DNA from: a virus
Taxonomy: Duplodnaviria > Heunggongvirae > Uroviricota > Caudoviricetes
Strand: one strand, 5' to 3'
Virus record (IMG/VR): IMGVR_UViG_3300037418_002559
Location: 15,999-79,998 of that record
DNA length: 64,000 bases
Position numbers and translations under genes: made by a program
Shown here: piece after piece, positions 16,148-53,095 of the stretch
Layout of the letters: each line of letters begins with the position of its first letter
How positions within the stretch are numbered: the first letter of the stretch is position 1
The notes under the pieces: generated by a model
Seen by the model: the letters and a program-made list of their open reading frames with translations, nothing else
What the model was told of the DNA's origin: nothing
Databases searched by the model: none

Positions 16148-16190
16148 GGGTCTATCTACGGGCCACTTCCGGAGCCAGTAGGAAAGTAGT

Positions 16191-16229
16191 AGGCCTATAA
16201 TTAACCCAGTCCTGAAAGGGGACCTATAA
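16191..16229 (+). promoter_or_regulatory. promoter-like GCCTATAATTAA element followed by a short hairpin with an SD in the loop
   Basis: TATAAT at 16196-16201. Hairpin GTCC-TGAAAGG-GGAC. ATG at 16230. Confidence 0.4.
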
Positions 16230-23377: not shown

Positions 23378-23597
23378 CATTGTGAGTGAGCGCCTCTGCC
23401 ACGGTAGTACCTGTGGATTCTCCCCACGGCGGCGCTTTCTTGCTTTGGATGGGCGTAGAACGGTCATGCGCCCATCGGAGTTCCTTATTGTGGGAACCAG
23501 TTGCAGCGTGAACCCGAGGCGAACGGGGCGCGTCATGCTGCGCAGGCTGCACGTAGGGAACTCCGATGGTTGCATGAACAAACGGGAAGAGGACAGA

Positions 23598-25359: not shown

Positions 25360-25390
25360 CGCGTTATAATAGAAGCAGGAGGTAAGACCG

Positions 25391-37887: not shown

Positions 37888-38239
37888 TTGCAAAGTAGGG
37901 GACAAGGTGCGCGTGCGGCCTGGATGGAACCCAATGGCTCCCACGCGAACCGTGATCGAGGTAGATCAAAATACTGGCGAGGCGACGCTGGATTGCACGG
38001 CGCTCAACGATGTCAAAATAACGGGCAGCAACGTGGATATATGGGAGCTTGTGCCAGTTACGCCGTTGTTTGATTGCAAGCTAGGAGACAGAGTACGCGA
38101 TGGCAGAGGTGTTGAATGGACGGTAAAAGGCATCAACACGCGTAGTGGTGACTTATACGTGGAATGCGCGAGAGGCTACGGCACCATAACGGCAAAGACG
38201 GCCAAGCACTGGACACGCGTGAAAAGGAGTAGCAGGTGA
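37871..38239 (+). CDS. protein with two tandem ~45-aa repeats
   Basis: LLDCKVGDKVRVRPGW... and LFDCKLGDRVRDGRGV... Confidence 0.4.
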   Translation: MPPLLDCKVGDKVRVRPGWNPMAPTRTVIEVDQNTGEATLDCTALNDVKITGSNVDIWELVPVTPLFDCKLGDRVRDGRGVEWTVKGINTRSGDLYVECARGYGTITAKTAKHWTRVKRSSR

Positions 38240-39723
38240 GCTCTGATGATTTAGTACCAAAATCGCTGGCCGAAAAGATGTCGGAATGGCGGCGGCAGGC
38301 GCGAGCATGGCATCCGCATCCGTATCAGGGAAGAGCGCTGAAGTTTTTGCTGGAACACAGCTACGCTGGGCTACTACTTGACCCCGGCATGGGCAAAACT
38401 AGCGTATCGCTGGCAGCCGTAAAAATACTCTTACAGAAGAAGCTGATCAAGCGTGTGCTTGTTATCGCGCCGCTGCGCGCCTGCTACGATACATGGCCTG
38501 CCGAGGTGTGCGATTGGACCGACTTCAAGAACATGCGCATTGCGCTGCTACACGGTGCTGATAAGGAGAAGAACCTTAGATCACTTACGTCTGCACATCA
38601 GATTTGTATTATCAACCCAGAAGGAGTGCCGTGGCTGTTCGCGAATAAGACGCGTGTGCAGCTGCTCGGTGCCGACATGCTTATTGTGGACGAGTCCAGC
38701 CTTTGGAAGAGCTCGGTCACGGTGCGCTTCCGCGCGCTGCGCAAGTATTTAGCCGAGTTCAAACGCCGCGTCATACTCACAGGCAGCCCAAGGCCGCGCC
38801 ACTATCTTGACCTGCATGGACAAGTATATTTGATGGATCGCGGAGCCACGCTAGGCGAATATCTTACCCACTACCGCAATAACTTCTTCTTCCCTACCGG
38901 CTACCAAATGCGCGAATGGGAGATACTTCCCGGCGCGGCGGAGAAGATAGACGCGTTGGTAGCGCCCATGGTGCTGCGGCTGGATGCGCAAGACTACCTG
39001 ACACTGCCCAAGGAGCTGGAGCGCACCCACCGCATTGAGCTCCCGCCCAAAGCGCGCGCCGAGTACGACAGTATTGAGAATAGCCTGATGAGCACGCTGT
39101 TTACAGCGCCGCTCGTGAGCTCGGCCAGTGCGCGCTCAAAATGCTGCCAGATTGCGAATGGTGCAGTCTACACGGACATGCTGCCTGAGGAGCGGTGGAA
39201 CAAGACGCGCCCATCCAAGGTTATACACACGGCCAAAGTGGACGCTGTAGTAGACCTTGTGCGCGAGTTGCAGGGCGAGCCACTACTGCTGGGCATCGGA
39301 TTCCAGCACGACGTTACAGCGCTGCGGCTCGCGCTGGGGAAAGACGTGCCATGCATCAACGGCCATACGACGCGCGCGCAGGCGGCGGATTACATCGAGC
39401 GCTGGAATAAGGGATTGCTACCGTTGCTTCTTGGCCATCCGGCGTCCATGGGCCACTCACTTAACCTGCAGAAGTTCAACGCGCGGCACGTCGGGTTCTT
39501 CGACATACCGGATAACTTCGACTACTACGACCAGTTTTATAAGCGCGTGAACCGCCAAGGCAACAAAGCTGGCTTTGTCATGAAGCACCACTTCGTAGTG
39601 GCAGCAACAGTAGACGTGGTGAAGATGCGCAATTTGCGCGCCAAAGACACCGGCCAGAAGGCATTTCTAAATGCCATGAAGAAATACAGCGAAGAGCGGC
39701 ACCAAGGAAAGGCCTCATTATGA
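38236..39723 (+). CDS. SNF2-family ATP-dependent helicase
   Basis: HPYQGRALKFLL...LLDPGMGKTSVSL (motif I); LIVDESSLWKS (motif II); GTG after AAGGAG. Confidence 0.7.
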   Translation: MSSDDLVPKSLAEKMSEWRRQARAWHPHPYQGRALKFLLEHSYAGLLLDPGMGKTSVSLAAVKILLQKKLIKRVLVIAPLRACYDTWPAEVCDWTDFKNMRIALLHGADKEKNLRSLTSAHQICIINPEGVPWLFANKTRVQLLGADMLIVDESSLWKSSVTVRFRALRKYLAEFKRRVILTGSPRPRHYLDLHGQVYLMDRGATLGEYLTHYRNNFFFPTGYQMREWEILPGAAEKIDALVAPMVLRLDAQDYLTLPKELERTHRIELPPKARAEYDSIENSLMSTLFTAPLVSSASARSKCCQIANGAVYTDMLPEERWNKTRPSKVIHTAKVDAVVDLVRELQGEPLLLGIGFQHDVTALRLALGKDVPCINGHTTRAQAADYIERWNKGLLPLLLGHPASMGHSLNLQKFNARHVGFFDIPDNFDYYDQFYKRVNRQGNKAGFVMKHHFVVAATVDVVKMRNLRAKDTGQKAFLNAMKKYSEERHQGKASL

Positions 39724-39974
39724 ACAGAATTGAAGAAATAGACAAGCAGATTAAAGAGCTATCGGCTGAGAAGACAGCCATACAAGACGCCTGTGCACAC
39801 CCACCTTTGTGCATTCGGTATCAATACGACGCTAGTACTGGAAACTGGGACCGTAACTCTGATTGTTACTGGACAAACTTGCGCTGCACTCTGTGCGGTA
39901 AACGCTGGCAAGTCGAAGGAAGCATCGACCCAGGCGTGGGCGCAAAGAAGATAGAAAGAGGAGCGGAGCTATAA
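39720..39974 (+). CDS. zinc-ribbon small protein
   Basis: CAHPPLC...CTLCGKRW. Confidence 0.4.
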   Translation: MNRIEEIDKQIKELSAEKTAIQDACAHPPLCIRYQYDASTGNWDRNSDCYWTNLRCTLCGKRWQVEGSIDPGVGAKKIERGAEL

Positions 39975-40004
39975 TTATTCCAGCGCCTGAAGGAGCGCTT
40001 TGAA
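39970..40004 (+). promoter_or_regulatory. TATAAT element plus hairpin with SD in loop
   Basis: TATAAT at 39970-39975, overlapping the upstream stop. AGCGC-CTGAAGGA-GCGCT. ATG at 40005. Confidence 0.4.
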
Positions 40005-40317
40005 ATGAACAAAGACAGAGTATTCAGACTGCACGATGGTTGGTACTGCATCGTGGACGGACACACGTACGGCACATGGGAAACAAAGGAAATCGCCGAG
40101 GCTGGCATGGCTACTGAGCGCCGACGCGCCGACGCGCGAAAGGCGGCTGCGTAGTGAAAATACATACTATGAGTGAAACTGCCATTGACTATCTGGCCGC
40201 GCAGATATGGAGGCGCATTGACGCCTCTGACGTGCTTGTATGGCGCGATGTCGCGGTGGCGACGAGGCAGCGCTACCAACAATACGTGCGCGACATCATC
40301 CTGAAAGAGGAGGCGCT

Positions 40318-40548
40318 ATGAATGAGTTGTCTCCAAGGCAGCGGGTGGCCGTGCTGAACGCGGCCATCCAGGCTACAGCGACCGTACACAGCAGGGTATA
40401 CGACCAGCCTTTCTACGCAGTAACGCACATGAAAGATGCCGGGCGGTGCACCTGCGAATACGGCATGACAATACGCGGGCTGAAGCTCATGCGACGTGAA
40501 TACTACGTCGCCATTGAGCACGCCAAAAAGAAGGTGGTGAAGAAATGA
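40318..40548 (+). CDS. hypothetical small protein
   Basis: GAGGAGG SD. Confidence 0.35.
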   Translation: MNELSPRQRVAVLNAAIQATATVHSRVYDQPFYAVTHMKDAGRCTCEYGMTIRGLKLMRREYYVAIEHAKKKVVKK

Positions 40549-40925
40549 TTCCGACGACGGAGGAAGTGCTAAGAGAAATAGGAGCGGCGGGTGTGGTGGT
40601 CGGCAGCGTCGCGCGCGGAAAGGCGCATCCGAAAGATCTGGACGTCGTGGTGCGCCCGCGCGGCAAGGCAGCCAAGAATTCTGTATTCGACCGAATCAGT
40701 CGTCGTTGGCCCAAAGAAGTGGATAGTGAATGTATTGGCCACCTGACCGTGCGCGCCGCGCCGCTTTGCGTGGAGCTGTTCGAGCATCAGTATTTTAGGA
40801 CTGGCGACGCGGCAAAGGACGCTTGCCGTGTTGGATTCGCCAAGGCGCGGCGGAACAGCGCATGGCGCATGGTCTATGGTGCGACAATGCAAGTGCTGGA
40901 GGTGAGTAATGCAACTGCCGATTAG
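40545..40925 (+). CDS. minimal nucleotidyltransferase (MNT/KNTase-like)
   Basis: VVGSVARGKAHPKDLDVVV (GS...DxD); ATGA overlap. Confidence 0.6.
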   Translation: MIPTTEEVLREIGAAGVVVGSVARGKAHPKDLDVVVRPRGKAAKNSVFDRISRRWPKEVDSECIGHLTVRAAPLCVELFEHQYFRTGDAAKDACRVGFAKARRNSAWRMVYGATMQVLEVSNATAD

Positions 40926-41172
40926 TTTCGCTAGCTTCCCTGTCAAGGAGAAGTACATCGACGAAGAGACGTCCGTGTTGTCGCGTTGGATGGTCTTTGG
41001 CGAGCACAAAGACGGTACTGTGGATGTTTGCGACGCGCAAGGCAACGACATATTCACGCGCGTCCCGGCGCCATTGGCAGAACTACTATGCCGCAAACGA
41101 AATATCTGGGTAGGCGAGCTGCTGGAGCAGCTGAACGGGAAACGTGCGTTTCCGGGGTGGCCTCCATGCTGA
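40909..41172 (+). CDS. hypothetical protein
   Basis: ORF track entry. Confidence 0.35.
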   Translation: MQLPISFASFPVKEKYIDEETSVLSRWMVFGEHKDGTVDVCDAQGNDIFTRVPAPLAELLCRKRNIWVGELLEQLNGKRAFPGWPPC

Positions 41173-41690
41173 GTACATCTGGACGCCTCCAGAACTGGAG
41201 CGACGTGCGCGAGTTCGTGTTCGCCGGAAACGCCACTTTCACGCTCGTGTCGCTCAAGACCGGCGCGCGCTTCACGTACAAGGTAAGGGTGAAGAAGGAA
41301 GACTTGGCGCGGCTGGAAGACGACAGGAAGTTGTCTGCCGTGGTTGGCGAACCTCCGACGTTCTTCACGGAGGCCGACGTGACATACTTCGTCAACCTGC
41401 TGCGCGGCCCGGACAACACCGCCGACTTCGTGTACATGGGCGTGGTGCGCAAGCCGGGGCGGTTCTTCTGGACGGCGGCGTCGGGCAAGGTCGGGCGGCA
41501 GGCTCCAGCGTACAAGGCGCTGCTCTGGATGCTTGACGCCATGACGTGCGAGCGCGACGTGCTCAGCAAGCAGCTGGAGATATGGCATGAAGGAAGATGC
41601 GGGCGCTGCGGACGGAAGCTGACGGTGCCGGAATCTATTGCCGCCGGAATCGGCCCTGAGTGCGCCGGAAGGCTGGAGGTGGCAGCATGA
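41166..41690 (+). CDS. hypothetical protein with C-terminal zinc ribbon (CGRCGRKL...GIGPECA)
   Basis: Internal ATG of track ORF 40986. Confidence 0.4.
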   Translation: MLSTSGRLQNWSDVREFVFAGNATFTLVSLKTGARFTYKVRVKKEDLARLEDDRKLSAVVGEPPTFFTEADVTYFVNLLRGPDNTADFVYMGVVRKPGRFFWTAASGKVGRQAPAYKALLWMLDAMTCERDVLSKQLEIWHEGRCGRCGRKLTVPESIAAGIGPECAGRLEVAA

Positions 41691-41902
41691 ACAAGTGGCA
41701 GGTAAGGGCACTATATGCGCAAGGTTTGCTCGGTTTTGCGCAAGCGCTGCTGATACTGCGTGGCAGACTTACCTTGAACCAAAGCCACGGTTTATTCGGA
41801 ACAGCTACTGCCATGGAATTTCTAGAGTCTGTCAGCCCACTGAACGCAACGTATAGGCGGTGCGGCACCTGGCAGACTAATTGCGGCATTAGGCGGGACT
41901 AG
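41687..41902 (+). CDS. hypothetical small protein
   Basis: GGAGG SD; ATGA overlap. Confidence 0.35.
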   Translation: MNKWQVRALYAQGLLGFAQALLILRGRLTLNQSHGLFGTATAMEFLESVSPLNATYRRCGTWQTNCGIRRD

Positions 41903-42268
41903 AAAGGAGATAGTTACTTAGATGGCGCATAAACCAGCTCCAGAAGACAATGGATTCTCTAATTATGACGGTCCTATCAGACCAAACATTCAAAAGTTGA
42001 AACCCAATATGGAAGCGTACAGAGCAGCCTTAATACGTGCTCAGAAAGCTAAGGAGGAGGAGGAGGAGGACTCAGCGAAATGATGACGCGTTGGGGATTC
42101 ACGGTGCCGGGTGGCCTGGTCGAACGCTTACGCAAGGAGCACGCGCTGCACGAGGCGACGATCGCGTACACGCTGAACAACGGTATCAAAGAGCGGTTGG
42201 CTGCTAAGAACGCTGAGATTAAGCGGCAGCTGGAAGCATTTGGTGCTGCGTTAGAAAAGGGTTTGTAG

Positions 42269-42487
42269 ATGAAGAAGCTACGCGTGACAGGAAACTTTTA
42301 TAGCAGAAATTCCGAACGGAATTACAAGGGCATTTGGTGCGTGCCGTCGGCGTCGGAGAGAAGCCTGCTGTTCGCGTGCCGAACATGGCACAAGGCCGTC
42401 GCGTACGCCATGCTGCATAACGACGGCGTGCCTCACAAGAATGCGGTGCGGCTCGCGCGGCACTGTACGCCAGATTTCCGTGTATAA
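42269..42487 (+). CDS. hypothetical small protein
   Basis: ORF track entry. Confidence 0.4.
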   Translation: MKKLRVTGNFYSRNSERNYKGIWCVPSASERSLLFACRTWHKAVAYAMLHNDGVPHKNAVRLARHCTPDFRV

Positions 42488-42520
42488 TCTTTTCAGCGGC
42501 CTGAAGGGAGCCGACAGAAA
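42481..42520 (+). promoter_or_regulatory. TATAAT plus CAGCGGCCTGAAGGGAGCCGACAGAAAATG cassette
   Basis: TGTATAAT at 42481-42488. GC stem with SD in loop. ATG at 42521. A near-identical block occurs at 43897-43939. Confidence 0.45.
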
Positions 42521-42760
42521 ATGAAACAGAAAATTGATTTGGCGGATTCGAATTTGAAATTGGCGGTTGAAGGACAGGTGGCAACGCTTGTATTCAGGCG
42601 CCATCGCGACGGGCACGAACTCAGCCTGAGCTCGGTCGGCAAGAGCCTCGTGGAGTTCGCGCCCGATGGTTCGCAAGTGGTCGATCACGCCTCGTTCCAT
42701 TCGACAGAGTCGTTCGTGTCAATCTTGCTGGAGTTCCTTGACGCGGAGGTGCTGGCATGA
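42521..42760 (+). CDS. hypothetical small protein
   Basis: Preceded by the conserved cassette. Confidence 0.45.
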   Translation: MKQKIDLADSNLKLAVEGQVATLVFRRHRDGHELSLSSVGKSLVEFAPDGSQVVDHASFHSTESFVSILLEFLDAEVLA

Positions 42761-43056
42761 ACGCACTGACGATGAAACTTCGTTCTGACATGGAAGCGCT
42801 TGGGTTCGAGGAAGTGCCGACTTCGACGCCTTTGGGCGCTGTGATGGGCAACCGTGACTTCCAGCGCGGCGCAACGCTGATCCGCTTCTGGGGCGGTAGA
42901 CTGGCCCCAGAATGGGTACACATCGAGCACGAACCACTGGGTGACCTGGATGAACCGGCCTACGAGGGCCAGACACTGATCGAAATCATTAACAACGGCC
43001 ACGGCACAGGCATTGCGGCGCTGGCGGTCTATCTGAAGAAAGGTGGTCGCCTATGA
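42757..43056 (+). CDS. hypothetical protein
   Basis: ATGA overlap. Confidence 0.45.
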   Translation: MNALTMKLRSDMEALGFEEVPTSTPLGAVMGNRDFQRGATLIRFWGGRLAPEWVHIEHEPLGDLDEPAYEGQTLIEIINNGHGTGIAALAVYLKKGGRL

Positions 43057-43623
43057 AACCGTTTCCAGCGCCAGAGCCACCGAGCCAAGAAGAGCTAGAC
43101 TACTGGGAGGCTAGACGCGCGGCGCGCCTAGCGAAGCACCCCATCGACTACGACGCCTTAGAAGCCGCAGTCGAAGCCTCCGACGAAGACGAAGAGGAGG
43201 AAGACGAAGAGGAGGACGAAGATGCGTAAACAGCGTGTCACCGTCAACGGCACTGAGTATGACAGCGTTGTTGAAAACCCGCAAGGGCAGATTACGCTGT
43301 CTTCGTCTAGACATTCACAGCGGTTCGTGACAACCATGGAAGAGCTTCAGACGCAGTACGGCGTGAAGACGGCGTACTTCGTGAAGGAAGCCCTTGGACG
43401 GAGGAGCGATGATCGTACTTTGTTTGAATGATTATCCCATTGGGGTGTACACCACGTCGGACTTAGCCGATGCCGCTGCCTTGGCTGACTGGAAGCGCCG
43501 CGAGCCGCGCTGGGAAGCGCAGGACTTGCGACTGGGACAGTCCATGTCTGGTTTCACCGGCTACAAGTACATGCGCTACTTCTACCATCAGCACGAATTT
43601 GCCTTGGACGCGGAGGCGAAGCC

Positions 43624-43890
43624 ATGAGACGCTGTCCAAAACGTTACCGCCATCCTTGTGACACTGAGCTTCGTAATCATGCGCCGTTGTCGTATATCAT
43701 TCTGGACGCCGTTCGGTGCGGGCTGTACGCACCGACGCATCCAGACTCTACGCGGCAGCGGAAGACCCGGCAGCGCGTCGTCGAGCGGCGCGCAGAACGA
43801 TTCGCCAAGCAAAATCAACCGACCTGGCTCCCGACGCTTCCAACGGTCTGGGAGCCAAAGCCCGTTTACGGACGGTTCTGGAGCTATTGA
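43624..43890 (+). CDS. hypothetical basic small protein
   Basis: ATGA overlap. Confidence 0.35.
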   Translation: MRRCPKRYRHPCDTELRNHAPLSYIILDAVRCGLYAPTHPDSTRQRKTRQRVVERRAERFAKQNQPTWLPTLPTVWEPKPVYGRFWSY

Positions 43891-43896
43891 AAACGC

Positions 43897-43936
43897 GCTA
43901 TAATGTTTCCAGCGGCCTGAAGGGAGCCGACAGAAA
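43897..43936 (+). promoter_or_regulatory. TATAAT plus conserved SD-hairpin cassette (copy 2)
   Basis: TATAAT at 43899-43904. The next 33 nt are identical to 42491-42523. ATG at 43937. Confidence 0.45.
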
Positions 43937-44335
43937 ATGAAAAACAGAAAATCTCAACGAGCAGCAGCAGATTTTATATGCAACATGTCCACCAGTGAGT
44001 GGATCGCGTACTGCAATGCAATGACACCCGAAACTCGGCAAATGCTGCTTGGCGATGCGGCGCCAGTTTCACTTGCGGACTTTGAAGGCAGCCGCAAGAC
44101 AGTGAAAACGAATAGTCAGTACAACGAAAAGAAGGCAATGCGCCAAGGGTGGCTGCTTGCAAACACAGGCAAGAAAATTGAAATTCAGCGCTACGACAAA
44201 GCGGAGAGATTTTCTTCAGACGCTGAGGCGCTTAAATTCGTGAAAGTCTTAGCGAAGAACGGTGATGAACACGCAAAATTCTGTCTGCGTTGTCTGACGC
44301 AAACAAGAAACAACGTACCTTGGGCGATCAACTAG
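43937..44335 (+). CDS. hypothetical protein
   Basis: ORF track entry. Confidence 0.45.
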   Translation: MKNRKSQRAAADFICNMSTSEWIAYCNAMTPETRQMLLGDAAPVSLADFEGSRKTVKTNSQYNEKKAMRQGWLLANTGKKIEIQRYDKAERFSSDAEALKFVKVLAKNGDEHAKFCLRCLTQTRNNVPWAIN

Positions 44336-44360
44336 GCCGCTAACAGGCAAACTTCGAATC

Positions 44361-44390
44361 TTTTAGCGGCCTGAAAGGAGCCGACGGAAA
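44361..44390 (+). promoter_or_regulatory. conserved SD-hairpin cassette (copy 3, no TATAAT)
   Basis: TTTTAGCGGCCTGAAAGGAGCCGACGGAAAATG. Confidence 0.4.
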
Positions 44391-44903
44391 ATGAAAACGA
44401 TAAAGGATTTTCAAGCAGATGCCGCGTATTATGCGCACTTGGCAAGACGACAAGGCGCGCTGGTAAAATTGACGATCGAAGCGATGGACAGTTGCGGAAT
44501 TGGACACGCGTATACGCCGCAACTCGCTGAGCAGCTTCAGAAGGGCGCTATGAAGGCGTGGCGCTTGGCCGAGATGGCCGTATCCAACGGGTACGTTTTG
44601 CCAGAAGACCTGCAACAGAAAGCCTACACGTCTGAAGACGCAGCAAAGAAGGAAACGCACCGTCCAGCGCTCGTAAGAAAATTCATCACAAGCATAGCGC
44701 CTTACGACCCGCGCATCGCGAACGAGGTAGGAGGGTTTGGAATCGGATTCCCACACGTTGGTCTACGGAAAATTGCCGAAGAGATGGGCTTCGGTACTAC
44801 GTACAGCACGTTCGGAACCGTGAATGTATTTTCTTCCACTTTGAAAGCGTGGAATGGCTGTCCGCTTCAACTCGGTTGGATCGTGGAGGTCTCCAATGCC
44901 TAA
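44391..44903 (+). CDS. hypothetical protein
   Basis: ORF track entry. Confidence 0.45.
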   Translation: MKTIKDFQADAAYYAHLARRQGALVKLTIEAMDSCGIGHAYTPQLAEQLQKGAMKAWRLAEMAVSNGYVLPEDLQQKAYTSEDAAKKETHRPALVRKFITSIAPYDPRIANEVGGFGIGFPHVGLRKIAEEMGFGTTYSTFGTVNVFSSTLKAWNGCPLQLGWIVEVSNA

Positions 44904-45933
44904 CGAAGTCATCTCAGACAACGTCGTACGCAAGATTCAGCTTCTGCTGCAACTCGCGGAGCGCGCGCACGGTAACGAGGTTGAGGCCGCAGCAGCGATG
45001 GCCAAGGCGCAAGAGCTCCTCGCGCGCTACAACCTGGACCTCACCACCGTACAGGACAAGGTAGTCGCAGGCGGCACCAACACGCCGGATGATGCAATGG
45101 CGAAGCGCGATTACGCCGTCACAAAGCGTAGCGCGATGTACCAGTGGCAGCGCAACCTTGTACGCGCGATTGCTGAAGCGAACTACTGCAAATACTGGAC
45201 GGCTGAGGTTACTGAAAAGGCGTACATTCCGCCCAGCAAGCGCAAGTATGGCACGGAAGATGAATCGCATCAGGACATCCATGTCAAGCGTCACAAGGTG
45301 CTGGGGCGCACGGCGAACACGATGTCGGTCATGCTCATGGTGGATTATCTGCTGGACACGATTGAGCGCTTACTGCCGTATCCGCAGAAAGAACGACTCA
45401 GCCGCTCAGCGAACAGCTGGCGCGAAGGATGCGCTGACCGGCTGATAGAGCGCGTGCGTGATAAGGCCGAGTCTATGCGCAAGGCGGACTATGCTACCCA
45501 AGGCGAAGCTGCGTACAGCACGGCTATCGCGGTACGCAATATGGCCACGGCTGAAGAAATCGGCAACTACGACCACATCAACGGCACGGGCGCGTGGGCG
45601 CGCAAACTTGAGCGTGATGCGAAGTGGGCAGAAGAGTCTAAGCAGTGGGCAGCCGCGCGAGAAGAACGCGAGAAACGTGAACTCGCTGAACTGGAAGCGA
45701 AGCTCGCCTTGGAAACGCCGGAGCAGAAAGCGCGCCGCGAAAAGAAGGAGGCGAAGCAGCGAGAAGCTGACGCGCGCTATGCAAGTCGTTACTGGGAACG
45801 GCAGGATCGCAAGGCGGAGCGCGAAGCACAGCGACGCGACCACGCCGCGTACAGCAGCGGGTCCAGAACGGCTGAGAAAATCGGGCTGGACGCGCAGCTG
45901 AAGCCCGGCAAGGAGGCCCAGAAGCTGGGCTAA
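44896..45933 (+). CDS. hypothetical protein with Lys/Glu/Arg-rich coiled-coil C-terminus
   Basis: GGAGG SD before ATG at 44896; EEREKRELAELEAKLALE... Confidence 0.5.
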   Translation: MPNEVISDNVVRKIQLLLQLAERAHGNEVEAAAAMAKAQELLARYNLDLTTVQDKVVAGGTNTPDDAMAKRDYAVTKRSAMYQWQRNLVRAIAEANYCKYWTAEVTEKAYIPPSKRKYGTEDESHQDIHVKRHKVLGRTANTMSVMLMVDYLLDTIERLLPYPQKERLSRSANSWREGCADRLIERVRDKAESMRKADYATQGEAAYSTAIAVRNMATAEEIGNYDHINGTGAWARKLERDAKWAEESKQWAAAREEREKRELAELEAKLALETPEQKARREKKEAKQREADARYASRYWERQDRKAEREAQRRDHAAYSSGSRTAEKIGLDAQLKPGKEAQKLG

Positions 45934-45995
45934 GTCACTGATTCTGCGCTGGTTGCAGCGAAGAAAATAAATCCTTCACGTGCCAATTTCTCCGT

Positions 45996-46030
45996 TATAA
46001 TTGTTGTGCGGCTGAAAGGAGCCGCTCCAA
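45996..46030 (+). promoter_or_regulatory. TATAAT plus perfect GCGGC/GCCGC hairpin with TGAAAGGA loop
   Basis: TATAAT at 45996-46001; hairpin 46008-46025; ATG at 46031. Confidence 0.45.
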
Positions 46031-46219
46031 ATGTTTATTTTCTTCGCTCCTGCCTTGCTCGCTTTACTCACAATCTTCGTGATCGCGTTCCGTGATCAGT
46101 TCGCCGCTGACAAACAGAAACCCATGCTGGAAGAAATACAGGATGCGCGGATCGCCTACAGCCAAGAAGTTTGGGAACAGGCCCGCAAGGAAGCTCTCGG
46201 AATCGAAGTAAACGCCTAG
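46031..46219 (+). CDS. small membrane protein
   Basis: MFIFFAPALLALLTIFVIAF. Confidence 0.35.
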   Translation: MFIFFAPALLALLTIFVIAFRDQFAADKQKPMLEEIQDARIAYSQEVWEQARKEALGIEVNA

Positions 46220-46241
46220 TCAACGCAGCACGAACCCGAGT

Positions 46242-46268
46242 CCAGCGCCTGAAGGGAGCGCCACTCAA
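46242..46268 (+). promoter_or_regulatory. SD-hairpin cassette variant
   Basis: CCAGCGCCTGAAGGGAGCGCC then ATG at 46269. Confidence 0.35.
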
Positions 46269-47936
46269 ATGACCGCAAAGAAAGTTACCGCCACCGTGAA
46301 GAAGTCCGCTAAACCAGAAGCCGTAAAAGCCACCGCCGCGCGCCTCACAAAGAAAGCTGACGCCGCCATCAAGAAGGCTGTCAGCGCGACTGCATCGCGG
46401 ATGGCCGATGAAGTCATCGCTCCCACACCGGTCAAGGCGAAGGAAATCAATGTCCGTAAACGGAACAAGGTTGGACTGGGTGTTATTGCAGATGAATTAC
46501 TCAGGCCAGTCAAAGCGCCAGTAACGCCGCTTACGAAGCTTTTGCTCAATGCGGGCTTCGTACACGCTCGTTCAGAAGCTGCCGACGAGCGCGACATTGC
46601 GCACGGCTACACCCACCCGGACGGCTCCGCTGCGATGTTCGTCCACTCCGCTACGAGTACGGACGTAGCGCCACGCTGGACCATCAAACAAGCGGACGGC
46701 ACGACGCTGAATGGTAAGACCGCCAAAGAGCTCGCGCTCGCTCTAACAAAGCCAGAAGCGCTTCCGGCGAATGTAACGTCGGCGCTGGACCTGCTTCGTA
46801 AGCTGACCAAAGGAACGTACCGACTCAACGACCTTGCCGGCGACGGTAATTACAAGGCACGCTTGCAGTTGCTGAAAAAGCTACTCAATACGGACAAGGT
46901 GCTTGTGAAGCAAAGCGGCGTCAACAACCTTGTCAAAGCGTTTTACTCGGCTCTGGACATCAAGACTGCAGCCGCTGCAGTCATGGCGTCTGAGTTCGAA
47001 GCGCGGTGCACTAGCCTTTTCAAGCAAGAGCAGAAGGCGGAGCGCGTTGTAGCGCGCGTAGAGAAGGCTGAAGTCAAAGAAGTTTTGAAGAACACGGCTT
47101 TTCAGCGCGAAGTCCACGATGGGAAGCCGATTCTTCCTGGTGTAAAGAAGCTGAGTGCCAAGAAACAGCGCGCCGCCGACGAAGCAGCCAAGGCCGAACT
47201 CGCAGCACAAATAGCACACAAGCGGCGGCAGGAAGAGTATACGCCGATTGCGGTCCCCCGTCCAGATTCAAAGGTAGATATCGACCTTTCCAGCATCTGT
47301 TTACTGGAAGACCCAAACAATGGAATCGTACTCATGTGTTTGGAAAAGCCAAATTCCCAGGGCGCGATTTGCGTGTATAATAATGGAAGTCGCGTTGCAG
47401 CCGGTGTTGTACCGACAGAAGTTTTGAATTCCCTGCGTCCCTTAGTGTCAGAAGACCTAGTGAGGGATGTGAACCAGTTACTGCACCCGATAACTGCGGG
47501 TGTCATTGTAACTCCACAAGCTGAACAACAGCTAACCGCAGTACTCAACTACTGCAAGGAGAATATCATCATGTCGACCGAAACCGCAGTAAAGACCAAG
47601 AAGTTCGCTCCTCCCGCCAGCGCCGCCAAGAAGGCATCGAAGAAGGCCGCGAAGCCAGCGCTCAAGACAGCCAAGAAGTCAGCCCACGACAAGGCTGAGC
47701 GCGCGCCGCGTATCACCGAAGATCGCAAGATCAAGGCGCTCATCACGGCGAAGGACAAGGAGCGCATGCCGCGCGAAGGCAGCTTCTGCTTCGGACAAGT
47801 CCAGGCCGTCATCGGCAGCAAGACTGTCAGCGAGGCGCAGGCCAAGCTGGACAAGAGTGGCCTGAATCCCAACAACCGTAAGCTGGAAGTCGCGTGGCTC
47901 CAGAAGCAAGGCTTCATCGAAGTAGCCACCGCCTAA
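46269..47936 (+). CDS. histone H1-like Lys/Ala-rich protein (555 aa)
   Basis: AKKA/KKAV-type low-complexity regions at both termini (KKVTATVKKSAKPEAVKATAARLTKKADAAIKKAV; KKASKKAAKPALKTAKKSA). Confidence 0.55.
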   Translation: MTAKKVTATVKKSAKPEAVKATAARLTKKADAAIKKAVSATASRMADEVIAPTPVKAKEINVRKRNKVGLGVIADELLRPVKAPVTPLTKLLLNAGFVHARSEAADERDIAHGYTHPDGSAAMFVHSATSTDVAPRWTIKQADGTTLNGKTAKELALALTKPEALPANVTSALDLLRKLTKGTYRLNDLAGDGNYKARLQLLKKLLNTDKVLVKQSGVNNLVKAFYSALDIKTAAAAVMASEFEARCTSLFKQEQKAERVVARVEKAEVKEVLKNTAFQREVHDGKPILPGVKKLSAKKQRAADEAAKAELAAQIAHKRRQEEYTPIAVPRPDSKVDIDLSSICLLEDPNNGIVLMCLEKPNSQGAICVYNNGSRVAAGVVPTEVLNSLRPLVSEDLVRDVNQLLHPITAGVIVTPQAEQQLTAVLNYCKENIIMSTETAVKTKKFAPPASAAKKASKKAAKPALKTAKKSAHDKAERAPRITEDRKIKALITAKDKERMPREGSFCFGQVQAVIGSKTVSEAQAKLDKSGLNPNNRKLEVAWLQKQGFIEVATA

Positions 47937-47952
47937 GTTCATCAACCGCGTG

Positions 47953-47983
47953 GGACCGGCGCGTAATCCGGTCCATTCCTCTT
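47953..47983 (+). terminator. putative terminator hairpin (weak U tract)
   Basis: GGACCGG-cgcgtaat-CCGGTCC followed by ATTCCTCTT, 17 nt after the stop at 47936. Confidence 0.35.
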
Positions 47984-48005
47984 AGCCTGCAAAGGATCCA
48001 GACAA

Positions 48006-48230
48006 ATGCCTGTAACGCTCGCCCGTCGCATTCGCCGCATCGGACTTCTGCCAACAACCTACAAGGAAACCAAGGAGACCGTTCTCAGGGTCAACGAGGA
48101 CGGAGAAGAAATCACAATCACGCACACCAAGAAAATTCCTGTTCGGCACCACAGCCGCATGTCTAACGATACGCGCGCTGAAATAACCAGTAAGCTACGC
48201 GCTGAAGCGAAAGCAAAACGCAAGAAGTAG
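48006..48230 (+). CDS. hypothetical basic small protein
   Basis: ORF track entry. Confidence 0.4.
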   Translation: MPVTLARRIRRIGLLPTTYKETKETVLRVNEDGEEITITHTKKIPVRHHSRMSNDTRAEITSKLRAEAKAKRKK

Positions 48231-48267
48231 TAGCCAGCCTACCAAACTAAATTCAAACCCCTATTGC

Positions 48268-48304
48268 CGTCCACCCAGTTCAACGGGTGGACGTCGTAGT
48301 TTCT
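48268..48304 (+). terminator. rho-independent terminator
   Basis: 9-bp stem CGTCCACCC-agttcaac-GGGTGGACG followed by TCGTAGTTTCT. Separates the upstream genes from the cassette starting at 48318. Confidence 0.6.
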
Positions 48305-48317
48305 GGAACGGAGATAA

Positions 48318-49163
48318 ATGAAAAATTTAACGCTCATCATACCCACGCATGGCCGGGTGGGAAAGCAAACCACGCTCCAAGCATTACCGACCAAACTTCA
48401 GGCCGAGGTCATTCTCGTTACTTCTCTGCCAGGAGAAGCGAAAGAGCTGCGCGCCCTTTACCCTAAGAACGAGGTAGCCGTAGCCAAGGGGACTACGTCT
48501 ATCGCTACCAAGCGGCACTGGATTATGCAGAACATTAAAGGCCGCATGCTGTTCATGCTGGACGACGACATAGCCTTCTTTGAGCGCTGCCCGCCCAAGT
48601 GGCGCGTGTGGGAGCCGCACCGCAAGGCCTACGCCTTGGCCAAGGAGGCCCCGGCCGACGCTGCCTTGATGAAGCGCCTGTATCCGCAGGACGCCAAGCT
48701 GCTCTCTTTGTTTCAGGACATGGATAAACGGGTGGCTTCACACAAACCAGCCATGATTGGTATAGCGCATCGGCGGCACAGCGATAAGAAGCAGGAATCA
48801 TGGGAAGTCAACGCGCGCATGATGTACGCATTCGGCGTAGATCCGGCCATTTACAAGGAAGAGAAAATTCGGTTCGATCGTGTAGGACTTCGTGAGGATT
48901 TCCACGTTGTTCTAAGCATGCTGCGCAGAGGACACGAGTGTCATAATTATCTGGAGCTACTGAACAATGAGTATGGCTCGTTCGGCGCTGCTGGTGGGTG
49001 CAGTGGTGAACGCTCCATGGAGTACAGCAACGAGCAGTGCTACGCGCTGCAGAAGCTGCACCCGGAGTTCGTCAAAGTTGTGGAGAGAGATTACAAAGGC
49101 TCCTTTCCACGCAAAGAGGTAGTCGTAGCCTGGAAGAAAGCATTTGAAAGTAGCAAGCAATGA
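48318..49163 (+). CDS. GT-A-fold (DXD) glycosyl/phospho-group transferase
   Basis: GGAG SD; LTLIIPTHGR (GT2-like N-terminus); MLFMLDDDIAFF (DXD). Confidence 0.6.
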   Translation: MKNLTLIIPTHGRVGKQTTLQALPTKLQAEVILVTSLPGEAKELRALYPKNEVAVAKGTTSIATKRHWIMQNIKGRMLFMLDDDIAFFERCPPKWRVWEPHRKAYALAKEAPADAALMKRLYPQDAKLLSLFQDMDKRVASHKPAMIGIAHRRHSDKKQESWEVNARMMYAFGVDPAIYKEEKIRFDRVGLREDFHVVLSMLRRGHECHNYLELLNNEYGSFGAAGGCSGERSMEYSNEQCYALQKLHPEFVKVVERDYKGSFPRKEVVVAWKKAFESSKQ

Positions 49164-49858
49164 TCATAGACCATAAAATTGTACGTAATAGCGGCTCCAC
49201 GCTGGAGCCGTGCATCTATAAGAGCGGCCCAGGTACAGTCGCGCAAGGTAGGAAGATGCTGGCGTATCCACACGTATTTGCGCCTGTGCTCGGTATTACT
49301 GACCATGGCTACTGTATGCCACGTCTGAATGAACCGTCCAGTGTCTCTCTTTCTGCAGCGCTGGATCGATTAGTCGTACTCTGGAACTCGACGGACATTG
49401 GACTGCTTGTCGCAACGCGTGCGCAACACCACGAAACGCAAGTAGCGCCTTTGGCTACTGAGCCGCTCCTGCGGCGCGCGCTGGAGCAGTGGCACGCACG
49501 TGTGCAGACAGTACACGGTACTGCTGTCAACGTTGTGCACGGTGATCCAACACTTGAGAATTACATGTACAATGGTGTCTGGCTGGACCCCAGTACGCGC
49601 CCGTTGCCTTTGGAAGCTGAGTTGGATGGCGGCAAGTTACTACAGTCTTACTTTGGCTACGGCCATTGTGGCACTACGGAAGAACTGCAAGCGATCAGAA
49701 AATTCATTCACACATGTGGACTGAATCTAGATTTGTGCGCGTATTACCTGGTCACACACTTGGTACGCTTGTACCGTGTTCAGCCGCAGGCCCAGTTCTG
49801 GGCAGTTACAGTAGCCGAAACGCTTGAGGAAAGAATGGAGGATTTTAAATGCAAGTAG
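49160..49858 (+). CDS. APH/choline-kinase-fold small-molecule kinase
   Basis: Brenner motif VVHGDPTLENYMY (HGDxxxxN) then WLDPS; ATGA overlap with the upstream gene. Confidence 0.6.
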   Translation: MIIDHKIVRNSGSTLEPCIYKSGPGTVAQGRKMLAYPHVFAPVLGITDHGYCMPRLNEPSSVSLSAALDRLVVLWNSTDIGLLVATRAQHHETQVAPLATEPLLRRALEQWHARVQTVHGTAVNVVHGDPTLENYMYNGVWLDPSTRPLPLEAELDGGKLLQSYFGYGHCGTTEELQAIRKFIHTCGLNLDLCAYYLVTHLVRLYRVQPQAQFWAVTVAETLEERMEDFKCK

Positions 49859-50583
49859 TAATCTTAGCTGCTGGGCGTGGCATACGCTTCGGCTCGGATA
49901 TTGTGCCGAAGATACTGCATACAGCCAGAGGCAAAACGTTGTTCAGACATGCCTTGGAGCAAGCTGCGGAGGTAAGCCGAACGCCAGTAGTCGTATGCAT
50001 GGCTGGGCTGGAAGAACGTCTGTCCAAAAATACACCCGTAAGTATTTATCCGTTGTTCAGCCCTATCCACGTCACACAGCAAGGTGCAGCGCTGTCGTTG
50101 CTTACGGCGGCTGGTCGTATGCAAGATGATGAGCCACTACTTGTCATGGACTGCGATACTATCTTTGCAAGTGGTACTATGATGCGCTTCGCTGACTTCG
50201 CTACGCGTGCATTCGCTGCTGGAAAAAACTCGGCTGTACTGACCTTCGTTCCAAACGACGACAGTGCGCGCTACAGCTTCGCAGCTGTCGATACGCAGGA
50301 AGATACGCCGTTCCCACACGTCGCCATGGTAGTGGAAAAGGAGCGTATTAGTAACGTGGCCACTTGCGGCGTCCATGCCTTCGCGTCTTGGACTGTCGTT
50401 CGGCAGGCCATTTATGAAATGGTTATTTTACAGACCATGACGAACGGAGAGTATTACTTAGCCCCTGCGCACAACAACATCGTTGGTACGACAGCCATGC
50501 TGATCGTTGCTGACCAGTTCAACCACGTTGGTACACCTGCTGAATTGGAGGCCTATGAGCGAGCAGTTTCCGCGACTCGATGA
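49849..50583 (+). CDS. sugar-phosphate nucleotidyltransferase (GlmU/IspD/RmlA-like NTP_transferase)
   Basis: N-terminal VVILAAGRGIRFGSDIVPKILHTARGKTL signature; 10-nt overlap with the kinase gene. Confidence 0.65.
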   Translation: MQVVILAAGRGIRFGSDIVPKILHTARGKTLFRHALEQAAEVSRTPVVVCMAGLEERLSKNTPVSIYPLFSPIHVTQQGAALSLLTAAGRMQDDEPLLVMDCDTIFASGTMMRFADFATRAFAAGKNSAVLTFVPNDDSARYSFAAVDTQEDTPFPHVAMVVEKERISNVATCGVHAFASWTVVRQAIYEMVILQTMTNGEYYLAPAHNNIVGTTAMLIVADQFNHVGTPAELEAYERAVSATR

Positions 50584-51418
50584 GTTTGTTCGGTTTGTAA
50601 ATGAACGTTGGAGCATACACCTGAAGCGCACAGAAGGTCTGCCGGCACCATGGACGAAGGATCCTATACTACAAAAGTACCGCTTTACAAATGTTCGCCG
50701 AGAAGATGACCGTGTTACTCGCTGGATACATGAGCAGTGGCTACGCGACCGCGCGACCGACGAGCTGTGGCTCGCTTTCTACGTTAGTCGCGTATTCAAT
50801 AAGCCGGAAACATTGGCCGCAATTGGTTGGCCGTTACCATGGAGCGCTGCTACGAAGAAACGAGTGTATACCGCCATTAAGAAGAGGCAAGCAAATGGTG
50901 AGCGGGTCTTCAACGCAGCCTACATCGTATCATCACATGGGCGCGCGACTTGCTCTAAGACTGAATACTACATGGAGATCTTCGACGAACTGTGGGCGCG
51001 ACGTAAAGTTGTTCGGCCCGTTCACGGAGATAGTCTGGAATCATTTTTCAGTAGATTGTGCGAACAGCCCGGTATCGGCGGCTTTATGGGAGCTCAAGTA
51101 GTGGCTGACATAAAAGCGTACGAGCCACTATACGGCTCTGACGACCTGTACACGTTTGCACGTAGCGGCCCTGGTAGTCGGCGTGGCATGCATTGGGTGC
51201 GTGGAACGGAGCCACTGCCGCGGTACAACGAGAGTGCATGGCAGGCAGACTTACTACTACTTATGGCTGCAGTGCGGCCTAAGCTCAAAGTATCGCTGGA
51301 TGCTCAGAATCTACAGAATTGCCTGTGCGAGTTCAGTAAGTACTGCAAGGTGAAGTTCAACGGCGGACGGGCTAAACAGATATTCCGGCCGAGTGTAGCT
51401 GCTTACACCAGCCTATAA
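50555..51418 (+). CDS. putative aGPT-Pplase-like DNA base hypermodification enzyme
   Basis: GGAGG SD 3 nt before the ATG. N-terminal WSIHLKRTEGLPAPWTKDPILQKYRFTNVRREDDRVTRW matches my recollection of the aGPT-Pplase family. The call rests on context and memory. Confidence 0.45.
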   Translation: MSEQFPRLDEFVRFVNERWSIHLKRTEGLPAPWTKDPILQKYRFTNVRREDDRVTRWIHEQWLRDRATDELWLAFYVSRVFNKPETLAAIGWPLPWSAATKKRVYTAIKKRQANGERVFNAAYIVSSHGRATCSKTEYYMEIFDELWARRKVVRPVHGDSLESFFSRLCEQPGIGGFMGAQVVADIKAYEPLYGSDDLYTFARSGPGSRRGMHWVRGTEPLPRYNESAWQADLLLLMAAVRPKLKVSLDAQNLQNCLCEFSKYCKVKFNGGRAKQIFRPSVAAYTSL

Positions 51419-51440
51419 TTAAAGTAAACAAGGAGAAGTA
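51411..51440 (+). promoter_or_regulatory. internal promoter-like GCCTATAATTAA element
   Basis: TATAAT at 51414-51419, overlapping the upstream stop. AAGGAGAAG SD then ATG at 51441. Confidence 0.4.
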
Positions 51441-52511
51441 ATGTTTAGTTATAAAGCACATGATGTAAATGAAGCGCTCTCATTCGGCCTGCAGCATTTA
51501 CTGCGTGAAGGCATCGAAGAAACCAGTCGTGTGGGTCCAGTGCTCGTAGCACCCGGCCCTGTGTGTATTGAATATGTAAACCCAAGACAGCGAGTTTTGT
51601 ATAGTCCAACACGTGACGCGAACCACGTATTCCATCTTATGGAATCACTGTGGCTGCTGTCTGGTAGCAACGAGATTGAATTTCCGGTATTCTTTAACAA
51701 AGCCTACGCACAGTTCAGCGACGACGGAACTACGATATGGGACAGCTACGGTTGGCGCTGGCGGCAGTTCTTTGGCTATGATCAATTGGAAGAAATCGTC
51801 GCAGAGCTAAAGAGGAATCCCAGCTCAAGGCGCTGCGTGCTGAGTATGTGGAATGGCGCAGAATGGTCGGCAGGCAATGGTCCTGATCCGTCTTGGGCGC
51901 GTGAAGACGGGCTTTGGATGCAAAGCGATCTTAGTGTAGCTTGCAATGGTGGCAAAGCGGTCCCCTGCAACACGCATGCGTATTTCGCTGTACGTGGTGG
52001 TAAGCTCAACATGACGGTCATGAATCGCTCCAACGATGCTATGTGGGGCTGCTTCGGCGCGAATGCCGTTCACTTCAGCTTACTGCTGGAATACATGGCT
52101 GTGCGTGTTGGGTTGCCTATGGGTAGTTACTTCCAGTTCACAAACAACCTGCACACCTACACCGATAAATTCAGTGTAGACATGCTCAATACAATAGAGC
52201 ACGAATGCGATACGGTTGGCGCGCTGCCGCAACCTGGCCCTGCGATTGAACCTGGATTTGACGAGGATCTGCGCCTATTCATGCCTTGGGCACTGTCAGT
52301 TATACGTTCGACGCCGGGGGATACTTTGCGCGCGCTGAACGTACCACAATTAGAAACACCATTCATGTATTCCGTAGTAGCTCCTATGTTTTTGTTCTGG
52401 GTGTATCGTAAGTGGAAAGACGAGTACAGCAGCTCTATTTGCTTGAATGGTATTGATGCGCCAGACTGGCAACGGGCTTGTGAAGAATGGAAGGAGCGTA
52501 GACGTAAGTGA
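51441..52511 (+). CDS. ThyA-family pyrimidine C5 hydroxymethylase/methylase (likely dUMP hydroxymethylase)
   Basis: MESLWLLSGSNE, DQLEEIVAELKRNPSSRRCVLSMWN, catalytic PC in VPCNTHAYFAVRGGKLNMTVMNRSNDAMWG, TNNLHTY. 356 aa with a C-terminal extension. Confidence 0.8.
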   Translation: MFSYKAHDVNEALSFGLQHLLREGIEETSRVGPVLVAPGPVCIEYVNPRQRVLYSPTRDANHVFHLMESLWLLSGSNEIEFPVFFNKAYAQFSDDGTTIWDSYGWRWRQFFGYDQLEEIVAELKRNPSSRRCVLSMWNGAEWSAGNGPDPSWAREDGLWMQSDLSVACNGGKAVPCNTHAYFAVRGGKLNMTVMNRSNDAMWGCFGANAVHFSLLLEYMAVRVGLPMGSYFQFTNNLHTYTDKFSVDMLNTIEHECDTVGALPQPGPAIEPGFDEDLRLFMPWALSVIRSTPGDTLRALNVPQLETPFMYSVVAPMFLFWVYRKWKDEYSSSICLNGIDAPDWQRACEEWKERRRK

Positions 52512-53095
52512 AAGAGGTTCTGCAATTCATCATGGAAGGTGGTAGTGTGCAGCGCTACCACACGCGTCCGGGCATAAGGCCGGACACAAACGCGCACCAC
52601 AGCCATGGCGTCCTGATGCTGGCCAGTCTGCTGGCCGGTCAGAATGAGCAAACAGGCTGCACGCAGGCTAGTGTTAATTTACTCATGGCATGTGCTACGC
52701 ATGATTTGGCGGAGCAACTGGCCTGCGATGTAAGCGCGCCAGCCAAGCGGTTGCTCGGTATACGTGAGCTTCTGCATGACTTGGAGTCCAACGAGCTGAG
52801 AACGCATCTGCTCGACTACGAGCAGCACCTTACAGAAGACGAGCGTACTATTCTGCAGCTTGCCGATTGCTTTGATGGTATGATGTATTGCTGTCGAGAG
52901 CTTGCTCTGGGTAATAGAAATGCCTTGCTCATCTGGCGTCGGTTTTGCAGTTACATAACTAAGATTACAGCACAACACGACATTGAGTTTGAAATTGGGC
53001 TGCGCGCCAGTGTGATGTTTGAATCCATCAAAGAAATCTACAGAGAGGTTACAAGTGTCACAGGACCAGAATTCGACATCTTCAAAGGCAAATGA
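52508..53095 (+). CDS. HD-domain phosphohydrolase, YfbR/OxsA/DatZ-like 5'-deoxynucleotidase
   Basis: RYHTRP...NAHHSHGVLMLASLLA...CATHDLAEQ...DCFDGMMY. GTGA overlap with the ThyA-like stop. Confidence 0.7.
   Translation: MKEVLQFIMEGGSVQRYHTRPGIRPDTNAHHSHGVLMLASLLAGQNEQTGCTQASVNLLMACATHDLAEQLACDVSAPAKRLLGIRELLHDLESNELRTHLLDYEQHLTEDERTILQLADCFDGMMYCCRELALGNRNALLIWRRFCSYITKITAQHDIEFEIGLRASVMFESIKEIYREVTSVTGPEFDIFKGK

Follow-up and report, generated by a model that had tools for sequence, protein, structure and literature searches.

Why do unrelated small genes in one phage genome begin with almost the same letters? The question is raised by a 64,000-nucleotide stretch of a tailed-phage genome (IMG/VR record IMGVR_UViG_3300037418_002559, positions 15,999 to 79,998; hereafter the window), in which a TATAAT hexamer, a short GC-rich hairpin carrying a Shine-Dalgarno (SD) sequence and an ATG recur as a unit that we call the cassette. 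A sequence-only reading had likened this unit to the promoter-early stem-loops (PeSLs) through which T4-type phages shuffle accessory open reading frames (ORFs). Our results reveal that the cassette is real, occurs throughout a clade of phages far above chance, and is supported by covariation. Judged from sequence, it is probably a compact, clade-specific device for expressing accessory genes, in which a hairpin at the 5′ end of the transcript, bearing the SD, would protect the mRNA end and tune initiation.

Copies of the cassette, their enrichment and stem covariation

A structural scan of the window recovered eight copies, all on the + strand and all in the non-structural arm of the genome, with six falling within 39.9-46.3 kb (Table 1). 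The general layout, 5′ to 3′, is a hexamer, then 6-8 nt to the 5′ arm, the loop (C)TGAA(A/G)G(G)(A), the 3′ arm and, a further 5-7 nt on, the ATG. Across the clade, stems are 4-7 bp and GC-rich, and loops are 5-14 nt. A perfect TATAAT stands 6-8 nt before the stem in six copies; the sequence-only reading had the spacing right but counted only three. The five variants it listed are all present, with 5′ arms at 44367, 46008, 46245, 39982 and 16209, as is the GCGGC/GCCGC stem at 46008 with its loop TGAAAGGA, and the copy at 4318-4356 is additional to them. The 33-mer CAGCGGCCTGAAGGGAGCCGACAGAAAATGAAA, described as two identical blocks, does occur exactly twice, at 42494-42526 and 43910-43942, 3-4 nt beyond the positions first assigned. 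From TATAAT through ATGAAA, the copies at 42483 and 43899 are identical at 42 of 44 positions. The description of the SD as lying in the loop holds for its 5′ half (GAAG or GAAAG), while its 3′ half (GGAG, GGA) lies in or adjoins the 3′ arm. The eight downstream proteins are mutually dissimilar, as had been stated (all cross-pairs E ≥ 0.2), and the 800-aa protein is the only one that matches a Pfam or PHROG family.

Enrichment over shuffled sequence had been named as a check, and it was found. A hairpin with a TGAARG loop followed by ATG occurs at 11 sites on the + strand and none on the − strand, compared to 1.09 ± 1.02 sites (maximum 4) in 300 dinucleotide shuffles; with TATAAT added, the full composite occurs at six sites and in none of the 300 shuffles. 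TATAAT itself is biased in the window, with 11 sites on the + strand, 2 on the − strand and about 5 expected, and a strict Watson-Crick hairpin follows 5 of 11 TATAAT sites versus a background of 6% (P = 2.6e-4). Among 78 unrelated phage loci totaling 1.41 Mb, the composite was found once on either strand. Since a crude 14-mer search allowing three mismatches was not significant alone (12 matches versus 6.6 expected), the structural and composite tests were needed.

Since MAFFT alignments lost the register of the stem, we built a covariance model from seven copies of the same geometry and realigned the other copies to it. On the window, the model ranked the four window seeds first, followed by matches at 39978 (E = 6e-7) and 46004 (E = 2e-3) and then by the most divergent copies, at 4327 and 16205; no further copies turned up. 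The 42483 and 46232 copies scored E = 1e-16 and 5e-15, respectively, and the 4318 copy was seventh, with E = 1.2. Across 1.0 Mb of loci, all matches with E < 0.1 lay inside the clade.

The clade was assembled from uncultured relatives. The 42000-47000 interval had no megablast match among 50,697 phage records, an exact 22-mer had no match in IMG/VR, a search of GTDB genomes with a 555-aa protein profile yielded no relative, and no close cultured phage was found. Relatives were collected from IMG/VR via the helicase (L001-L006, 67-78% identity), the 800-aa protein (L011, 59%) and the 555-aa protein profile (L099-L111, 38-48%), and from public assemblies via the 555-aa protein (L091-L093, 60-71% identity). 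The same architecture, with other stems, is present in all relatives collected, which represent at least ten related uncultured phage genomes. In JGI metagenomes, a 21-mer pattern recovered only L009, which is the same phage (99.2% identical), plus three unrelated contigs. In these contigs, which have no protein similarity to the clade, the exact 21-mer AGCGGCCTGAARGGAGCCGAC stands at 146-166 of L007, where an ATG follows after 3 nt, at 1195-1215 of L008 and at 107-127 of L010; it reflects either chance or a convergent SD hairpin.

The 35 collected copies contain 24 distinct Watson-Crick core stems. In the model-fitted alignment, 87% of cells are paired, compared to 63% in shuffles (0 of 500 reach 87%), although these shuffle controls overstate the significance, since the model shaped the alignment and many copies share ancestry. 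Sliding the 3′ partners lowers paired cells to 24-47%, and four of the five stem pairs have changed on both sides. When the 5′ half of one copy was joined to the 3′ half of another, the folding energy was −6.46 ± 0.51 kcal/mol, compared to −8.64 kcal/mol for native copies, a value that none of 2000 permutations reached. What is conserved thus appears to be pairing rather than stem sequence, and the hairpin therefore most likely acts as RNA.

It is very improbable that the inverted repeat instead works as DNA, whether as a protein operator, a cruciform or an N4-type hairpin promoter. Its place next to the −10 hexamer would suit such a role, and a test for sense-strand bias, neutral with 19 G·U versus 21 A·C at stem-flanking positions, would be compatible with it. 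However, 24 freely differing core stems argue against a sequence-specific DNA-binding protein, the loops of 5-14 nt with the SD inside are unlike the 3-nt loops of N4 early promoters, and the unit is present also where there is no promoter.

Promoter, predicted transcript start and leader hairpin

The consensus of 21 aligned promoters is G.G.TATAAT..TT.CAG and nothing more. A −35 element, taken as four or more of six matches at a spacing of 16-18 nt, is absent from every cassette, and no column upstream of −16 is conserved, the AT fraction there being 0.48-0.51. Counting onward from the hexamer, base 7 is an A in 25 of the 33 copies that have a promoter and a purine in 29, and a C or T precedes it in 28. 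Because of this conserved pyrimidine-A, and applying E. coli-type promoter rules, we put the predicted transcript start at this base, 0-2 nt before the stem. Pairing begins at +7 or +8, counted in the same way, in 24 of these copies (range +5 to +9), and predicted leaders are 22-32 nt long.

In every predicted leader, the hairpin is the minimum-energy structure (−6.4 to −12.5 kcal/mol). In many copies an upstream CCU pairs with the GGAG or GGA part of the SD. The unpaired probability of the SD core ranges from 0.28 to 0.75, with a mean of 0.46 compared to 0.59 over 77 further window genes (p = 0.20), while the start codon is more open than in those genes (0.75 versus 0.53, p = 0.048). Since the SD core is partly paired and its difference from other genes is not significant, folding predicts an SD that is neither clearly displayed nor clearly hidden. 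In variants at position D of L001 (15743, near 16190) and L091 (9702), the hairpin stays at the hexamer and the SD lies downstream of it.

A second pairing was noted just 5′ of the stem, where a conserved TTYCAG is complementary to the loop CTGAA over 4-5 bp in about 7 of the 35 copies, including window 42491-42505 and copies in L001 (12928), L091 (5768) and L093 (4989). This alternative hairpin could form only in read-through transcripts, and energy predictions prefer the main hairpin.

A mechanism that would accommodate these features begins with a consensus −10 hexamer lacking a −35 (G-n-G-n-TATAAT), followed by a T-rich stretch ending in C-A that would set the transcript start at the 7th base after the hexamer. 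The hairpin, of 4-7 GC-rich bp, would begin 0-2 nt after the start, hold the SD in its loop and 3′ arm, and be followed by a spacer of 5-7 nt and the ATG. The leader, about 22-32 nt, would be nearly all hairpin and would offer too few unpaired 5′ nucleotides for 5′-end-dependent decay (RppH and RNase E or RNase J), while the half-exposed SD and open start codon would still allow ribosome binding. Since the leaders are so short, the SD would have to sit inside the hairpin. The genes expressed in this way would be accessory and probably early.

Such protection has precedents. Stem-loops at the 5′ terminus stabilize bacterial mRNAs, as in E. coli ompA and papA and in the B. subtilis aprE leader, where a 5′ stem-loop acts together with ribosome binding, and RppH requires at least 2 unpaired 5′ nucleotides (review PMC3997798). 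The cassette shares with ompA, papA and aprE a hairpin within 0-2 nt of the mRNA 5′ end, predicted here, and a strong ribosome-binding site nearby. However, those are single-gene leaders with measured effects, whereas the cassette is a repeated, clade-wide unit known from sequence, with the SD inside its hairpin.

Several points weigh against protection of the 5′ end as the explanation. Single hairpins are statistically weak, with z = +0.9 to −2.4. The start was placed by E. coli-type promoter rules, which may not be those of the host. The pair counts come from the model-fitted alignment, whose copies have GC-rich arms and in many cases a common origin, and the sense-strand test gives no lean toward RNA. 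Finally, the hairpin-SD-ATG unit at position E, before the 555-aa gene, is promoter-less in four genomes (the window, L091, L092 and L093). Since the unit is kept there, the hairpin appears to have a role independent of a primary 5′ end as well, and end protection would not be the whole story. Tuning of initiation, or protection of a processed 5′ end, may be a further role of the unit.

The promoter-less copy would also fit a hairpin that serves as an operator for a trans-acting RNA-binding factor co-regulating all cassette-led genes. Candidates are a translational repressor of the MS2-coat or RegA type, an SD-directed endonuclease of the RegB type, or an N/boxB-like antiterminator. Protein-bound RNA operators typically combine a constant loop with stems that vary and covary, as seen here, where 20 of 25 copies have the loop (C)UGAAGG, and CCUGAAG also occurs in lambda nutL boxB. 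However, the SD itself largely accounts for the conserved loop bases, and the hairpins of three position-D variants lack the loop motif. The surroundings of the cassettes contain no boxA-like sequence: CGCTCTTTA, allowing one mismatch, has 13 sites in the window versus 15.3 expected, and none on the + strand within 40 nt of a cassette. Searched with Rfam 15, the window has no gathering-score match and the 39800-46400 interval none even at E ≤ 1, and no candidate RNA-binding regulator was identified among the scanned ORFs. We therefore consider an operator of this kind distinctly unlikely.

The same low expectation attaches to the broader proposal of a post-transcriptional regulon, in which a phage- or host-encoded RNA-binding factor would read the (C)UGAAGG loop, whatever the stem, and time the translation or decay of all accessory genes together. 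If this proposal were true, the cassette would be a portable “plug-in socket” that enrolls newly captured ORFs into the regulon, which would explain both the retention of hairpin and SD at promoter-less position E and the unrelated ORFs found behind orthologous cassettes.

Promoters of the same −35-less kind also occur in the window without a hairpin, at 25365 (Table 1), 30468 and 51414, and several are found in relatives. In L001, a 9-10 bp inverted repeat, CTCCAGAAAA/TTTTCTGGAG, lies immediately upstream of two cassettes (14575-14607 and 15703-15742). In the window, TTCTGGAG stands at 43876-43883, 15 nt ahead of the TATAAT at 43899, and repeats near a few promoters only. Both could be operators for a DNA-binding regulator. 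The TATAAT at 47376-47381 (+), the sole match of a simple sigma-70 scan in its region, is not regarded as a promoter, since it codes for C-V-Y-N-N, an invariant motif of the 555-aa protein, so that coding constraint conserves its sequence; the equivalent in a relative is at L001 17405.

Cassettes at the edges of accessory modules

Between the helicase and the 555-aa gene, a backbone of helicase, DUF6011, DUF2786 and 555-aa protein is kept. The rest of this interval consists of genome-specific genes whose content differs in all five genomes compared. The view of a conserved expression cassette before unrelated ORFs, in a region of highly variable gene content, therefore stands. Replacement of ORFs between relatives, which had been suggested as a check, is also seen, as syntenic cassettes lead unrelated first ORFs.

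Most copies group by genomic position across genomes (positions A, B, C, D and E), and for this reason most appear to be positional orthologues inherited vertically. Position A has orthologues in L001, L003, L091, L092 and L093, and the L011 orthologue of the 800-aa gene is preceded by an almost identical cassette. The exceptions are the window copies at 43899 and 44354, which are closest to the window copy at 42483 (identity 0.91 and 0.85). Identity of the 44354 copy to its positional orthologues in L091 and L093 is below 0.71. Homology among the three window copies begins at TATAAT and stops 6-17 nt into unrelated ORFs; the loops of the 42483 and 44354 copies are CTGAAGGGA and CTGAAAGGA.

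The ORFs behind 43899 and 44354 had no other member in word-based searches of 5.8 billion clusters, and both have a GC content at third codon positions below that of their neighbors (0.52 for the ORF behind 43899). A full HMMER scan revealed that the 170-aa ORF behind 44354 (44391-44903, +) is a mosaic of two small-ORF modules. The first, residues 1-69, shares 60% identity with a 70-aa ORF that in L112 and L113 directly follows DUF6011, behind a B-type cassette (TACAAT..GCGG actgaagggg CCGC..ATGAAAACG), and residues 91-168 are 59% identical to an 86-aa ORF of an unrelated contig (L114, L115). A unit of cassette plus MKT..KDFQADAAYYA ORF is thus at position B in L112 and L113 and at position C in the window. 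Position C holds three unrelated ORFs in the window, L091 and L093, all starting with ATGAAAAC and all ending across the start of the DUF2786 gene.

In L093, a 27-nt exact repeat of the hairpin-SD-ATG unit precedes two unrelated ORFs, so that two genomes, the window and L093, show intragenomic copying of the cassette. A strong terminator-like hairpin (CCTCTCACAA...TTGTGAGAGG, then a T-run) was observed at L093 9770-9825, directly upstream of the second, promoter-less repeat.

These observations could mean that the cassettes are primarily recombination linkers of the PeSL type, repeats that serve as crossover points for inserting, deleting or swapping expression-ready ORFs, with regulation secondary. 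The near identity of the three window copies, the abrupt end of their homology, the low third-position GC of the two orphan ORFs, the L093 repeat, the shared start and end of the position-C ORFs and the moved unit all favor this possibility. So does the small number of homologous pairs among 40 cassette-led first ORFs (15 of 780, mostly orthologues of the 555-aa and 800-aa proteins). However, most copies group A with A, B with B, D with D and E with E, indicating vertical descent. Of the ORFs immediately following cassettes, 4 of 16 have homologues in other genomes, compared to about 33 of 76 other regional ORFs; by our estimate this difference is not significant, and the cassette-led ORFs are not significantly more variable or unique than the rest of the region. 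The compared relatives, at about 40-80% protein identity, are too distant for crossovers to be mapped. The covarying stems and constant distances to hexamer and ATG indicate selection on expression; recombination by itself would not keep them. The linker role is unlikely to be the primary one.

Under the expression-cassette explanation, evolution would consist mostly of stable positional orthologues, with occasional duplication or movement together with an ORF. The data support cassettes as the 5′ edges of exchangeable ORF modules, sometimes copied, since each appears to be a self-sufficient start signal of about 45-55 nt. The earlier idea of shuffling by cassettes therefore survives in part: the first ORF differs at syntenic cassettes and near-identical copies lead unrelated ORFs, but most copies are vertical.

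The ORF at position D is a short hydrophobic, membrane-like peptide in the window (46031-46219, 62 aa), L091 (9736, 33 aa) and L093 (9850, 35 aa). Since there is no BLAST similarity among the three, we call them analogous; they are not demonstrably homologous.

Comparison with known systems and genome setting

The cassette resembles T4 PeSLs and the start-associated sequences (SAS) of Cluster K mycobacteriophages and belongs to neither. PeSLs consist of an AT-rich region with −35 and −10 elements, and the stem-loop upstream of the promoter is a terminator (Arbiol et al. 2010, PMC2839356; Comeau et al. 2014, PMC4122927). Both PeSLs and the cassette are short repeated regulatory units ending in SD and ATG, precede small unrelated ORFs in a hyperplastic region, occur as degraded and near-identical copies, and are tied to ORF replacement between relatives. 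The proposed likeness thus holds for context and for placement at module edges. It fails for structure: here the hairpin is 5-9 nt downstream of the hexamer, within the leader, and embeds the SD, there is neither a −35 nor an upstream AT-rich region, and no terminator-like hairpin lies upstream of any cassette in 38000-48500. The phages also differ, the group here having genomes of about 100 kb, 55% GC and thymidine-hypermodification genes.

The SAS is a fixed 13-mer, GGGATAGGAGCCC (Pope et al. 2011, PMC3203893), whose function was still unverified in 2025 (PMC12699233). Like the cassette, it lies 3-7 nt before a start codon, usually ATG, is in a single orientation before non-structural genes of different families, and places an SD between short complementary GC arms (GGG...CCC in the SAS). 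In contrast, the cassette arms, of 4-7 bp, vary and covary and are mostly at a fixed distance from TATAAT, while the SAS has no link to a promoter. When up to 2 mismatches are allowed, the SAS 13-mer matches the window once, on the − strand and within an ORF, compared to 0.84 expected by chance, and its consensus is considered absent here.

After T4 PeSLs and the Cluster K SAS, the cassette would be a third, structurally distinct case of phages standardizing the start signals of accessory ORFs. Here the RNA hairpin has clear covariation support, which the SAS literature is without. If the hairpin stabilizes very short leaders or is a shared operator, it would hint at the function of SAS-like elements generally and would provide a compact promoter-leader part for engineering. 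The cassette also gives a sequence-level handle on expression in an uncultured clade of ~100 kb phages with thymidine-hypermodification genes, as it predicts promoters, transcript starts and operon boundaries.

Table 1. Cassette copies and other features of the window; positions count from its first nucleotide
Feature	Coordinates	Strand	−10 hexamer	Start codon and ORF, or setting	Stem (5′ arm / 3′ arm)
Cassette copy	4318-4356	+	TATAAT 4318-4323	ATG 4354, 169-aa ORF	AGGCGT 4330-4335 / ACGTCT 4343-4348, one G·U pair; loop TTGAAGG; −6.8 kcal/mol
Cassette copy	16196-16232	+	TATAAT 16196-16201	ATG 16230, conserved 800-aa ORF (phrog_1735)	GTCC 16209-16212 / GGAC 16220-16223; loop TGAAAGG
Cassette copy, position A	39970-40007	+	TATAAT 39970-39975	ATG 40005, 49-aa ORF; first after SNF2 helicase	AGCGC 39982-39986 / GCGCT 39995-39999
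Cassette copy, position B	42483-42523	+	TATAAT 42483-42488	ATG 42521, 79-aa ORF	CGGC 42497-42500 / GCCG 42510-42513
Cassette copy, extra near-identical position B copy	43899-43939	+	TATAAT 43899-43904	ATG 43937, 132-aa ORFan	43913-43916 / 43926-43929
Cassette copy, decayed −10	44354-44393	+	TCGAAT	ATG 44391, 170-aa mosaic ORF	44367-44370 / 44380-44383
Cassette copy, position D (after DUF2786)	45996-46033	+	TATAAT 45996-46001	ATG 46031, 62-aa hydrophobic ORF	GCGGC 46008-46012 / GCCGC 46021-46025; −11.9 kcal/mol, z = −2.4
Cassette copy without promoter, position E	46232-46271	+	none	ATG 46269, conserved 555-aa ORF	GCGC 46245-46248 / GCGC 46258-46261; loop CTGAAGGGA
Hairpin-less TATAAT promoter, without −35	25365-25393	+	TATAAT	short leader with AGGAGG, then ATG 25391	
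Terminator-like hairpin	47953-47974	+		after 555-aa gene	
TET-associated glycosyltransferase-like	48318-49163	+		thymidine-hypermodification set (48318-53095)	
Nucleotidyl-transferase	49849-50583	+		thymidine-hypermodification set	
5-hmdU DNA kinase	50507-51418	+		thymidine-hypermodification set	
Thymidylate-synthase-like	51441-52511	+		thymidine-hypermodification set	
YfbR/HD phosphohydrolase	52508-53095	+		thymidine-hypermodification set	

The window looks like a piece of a phage genome, with genes on the + strand to about 53.4 kb and on the − strand beyond. The + arm codes for a primase-like protein, a family-A DNA polymerase, the SNF2 helicase, a ligase, a PD-(D/E)XK nuclease, the thymidine-hypermodification set and a sigma-like ORF. 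This last ORF (8209-9126, +) has weak matches to sigma-70 region 2 and region 4, both slightly below Pfam cut-offs. As a phage sigma factor it may serve the − strand (structural) genes, and it is unlikely to read the −35-less TATAAT promoters. The terminator-like hairpin after the 555-aa gene is likely the end of a multi-promoter transcription unit; comparable hairpins are at the same place in L091, L092 and L093.

A PurA-like ORF of the adenylosuccinate synthetase family lies at 23352-24764 (+). Since its best solved-structure matches are ordinary PurA enzymes (E = 8e-26), with no PurZ entry among the structure matches, a PurZ or Z-base (2-aminoadenine) pathway is unsupported. Homologues of the thymidine-hypermodification genes are also found downstream of the 555-aa gene in L091 and L093, and most of the set is in L092. 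Given these genes in the window and its relatives, the TATAAT boxes may carry modified T residues in virion DNA.

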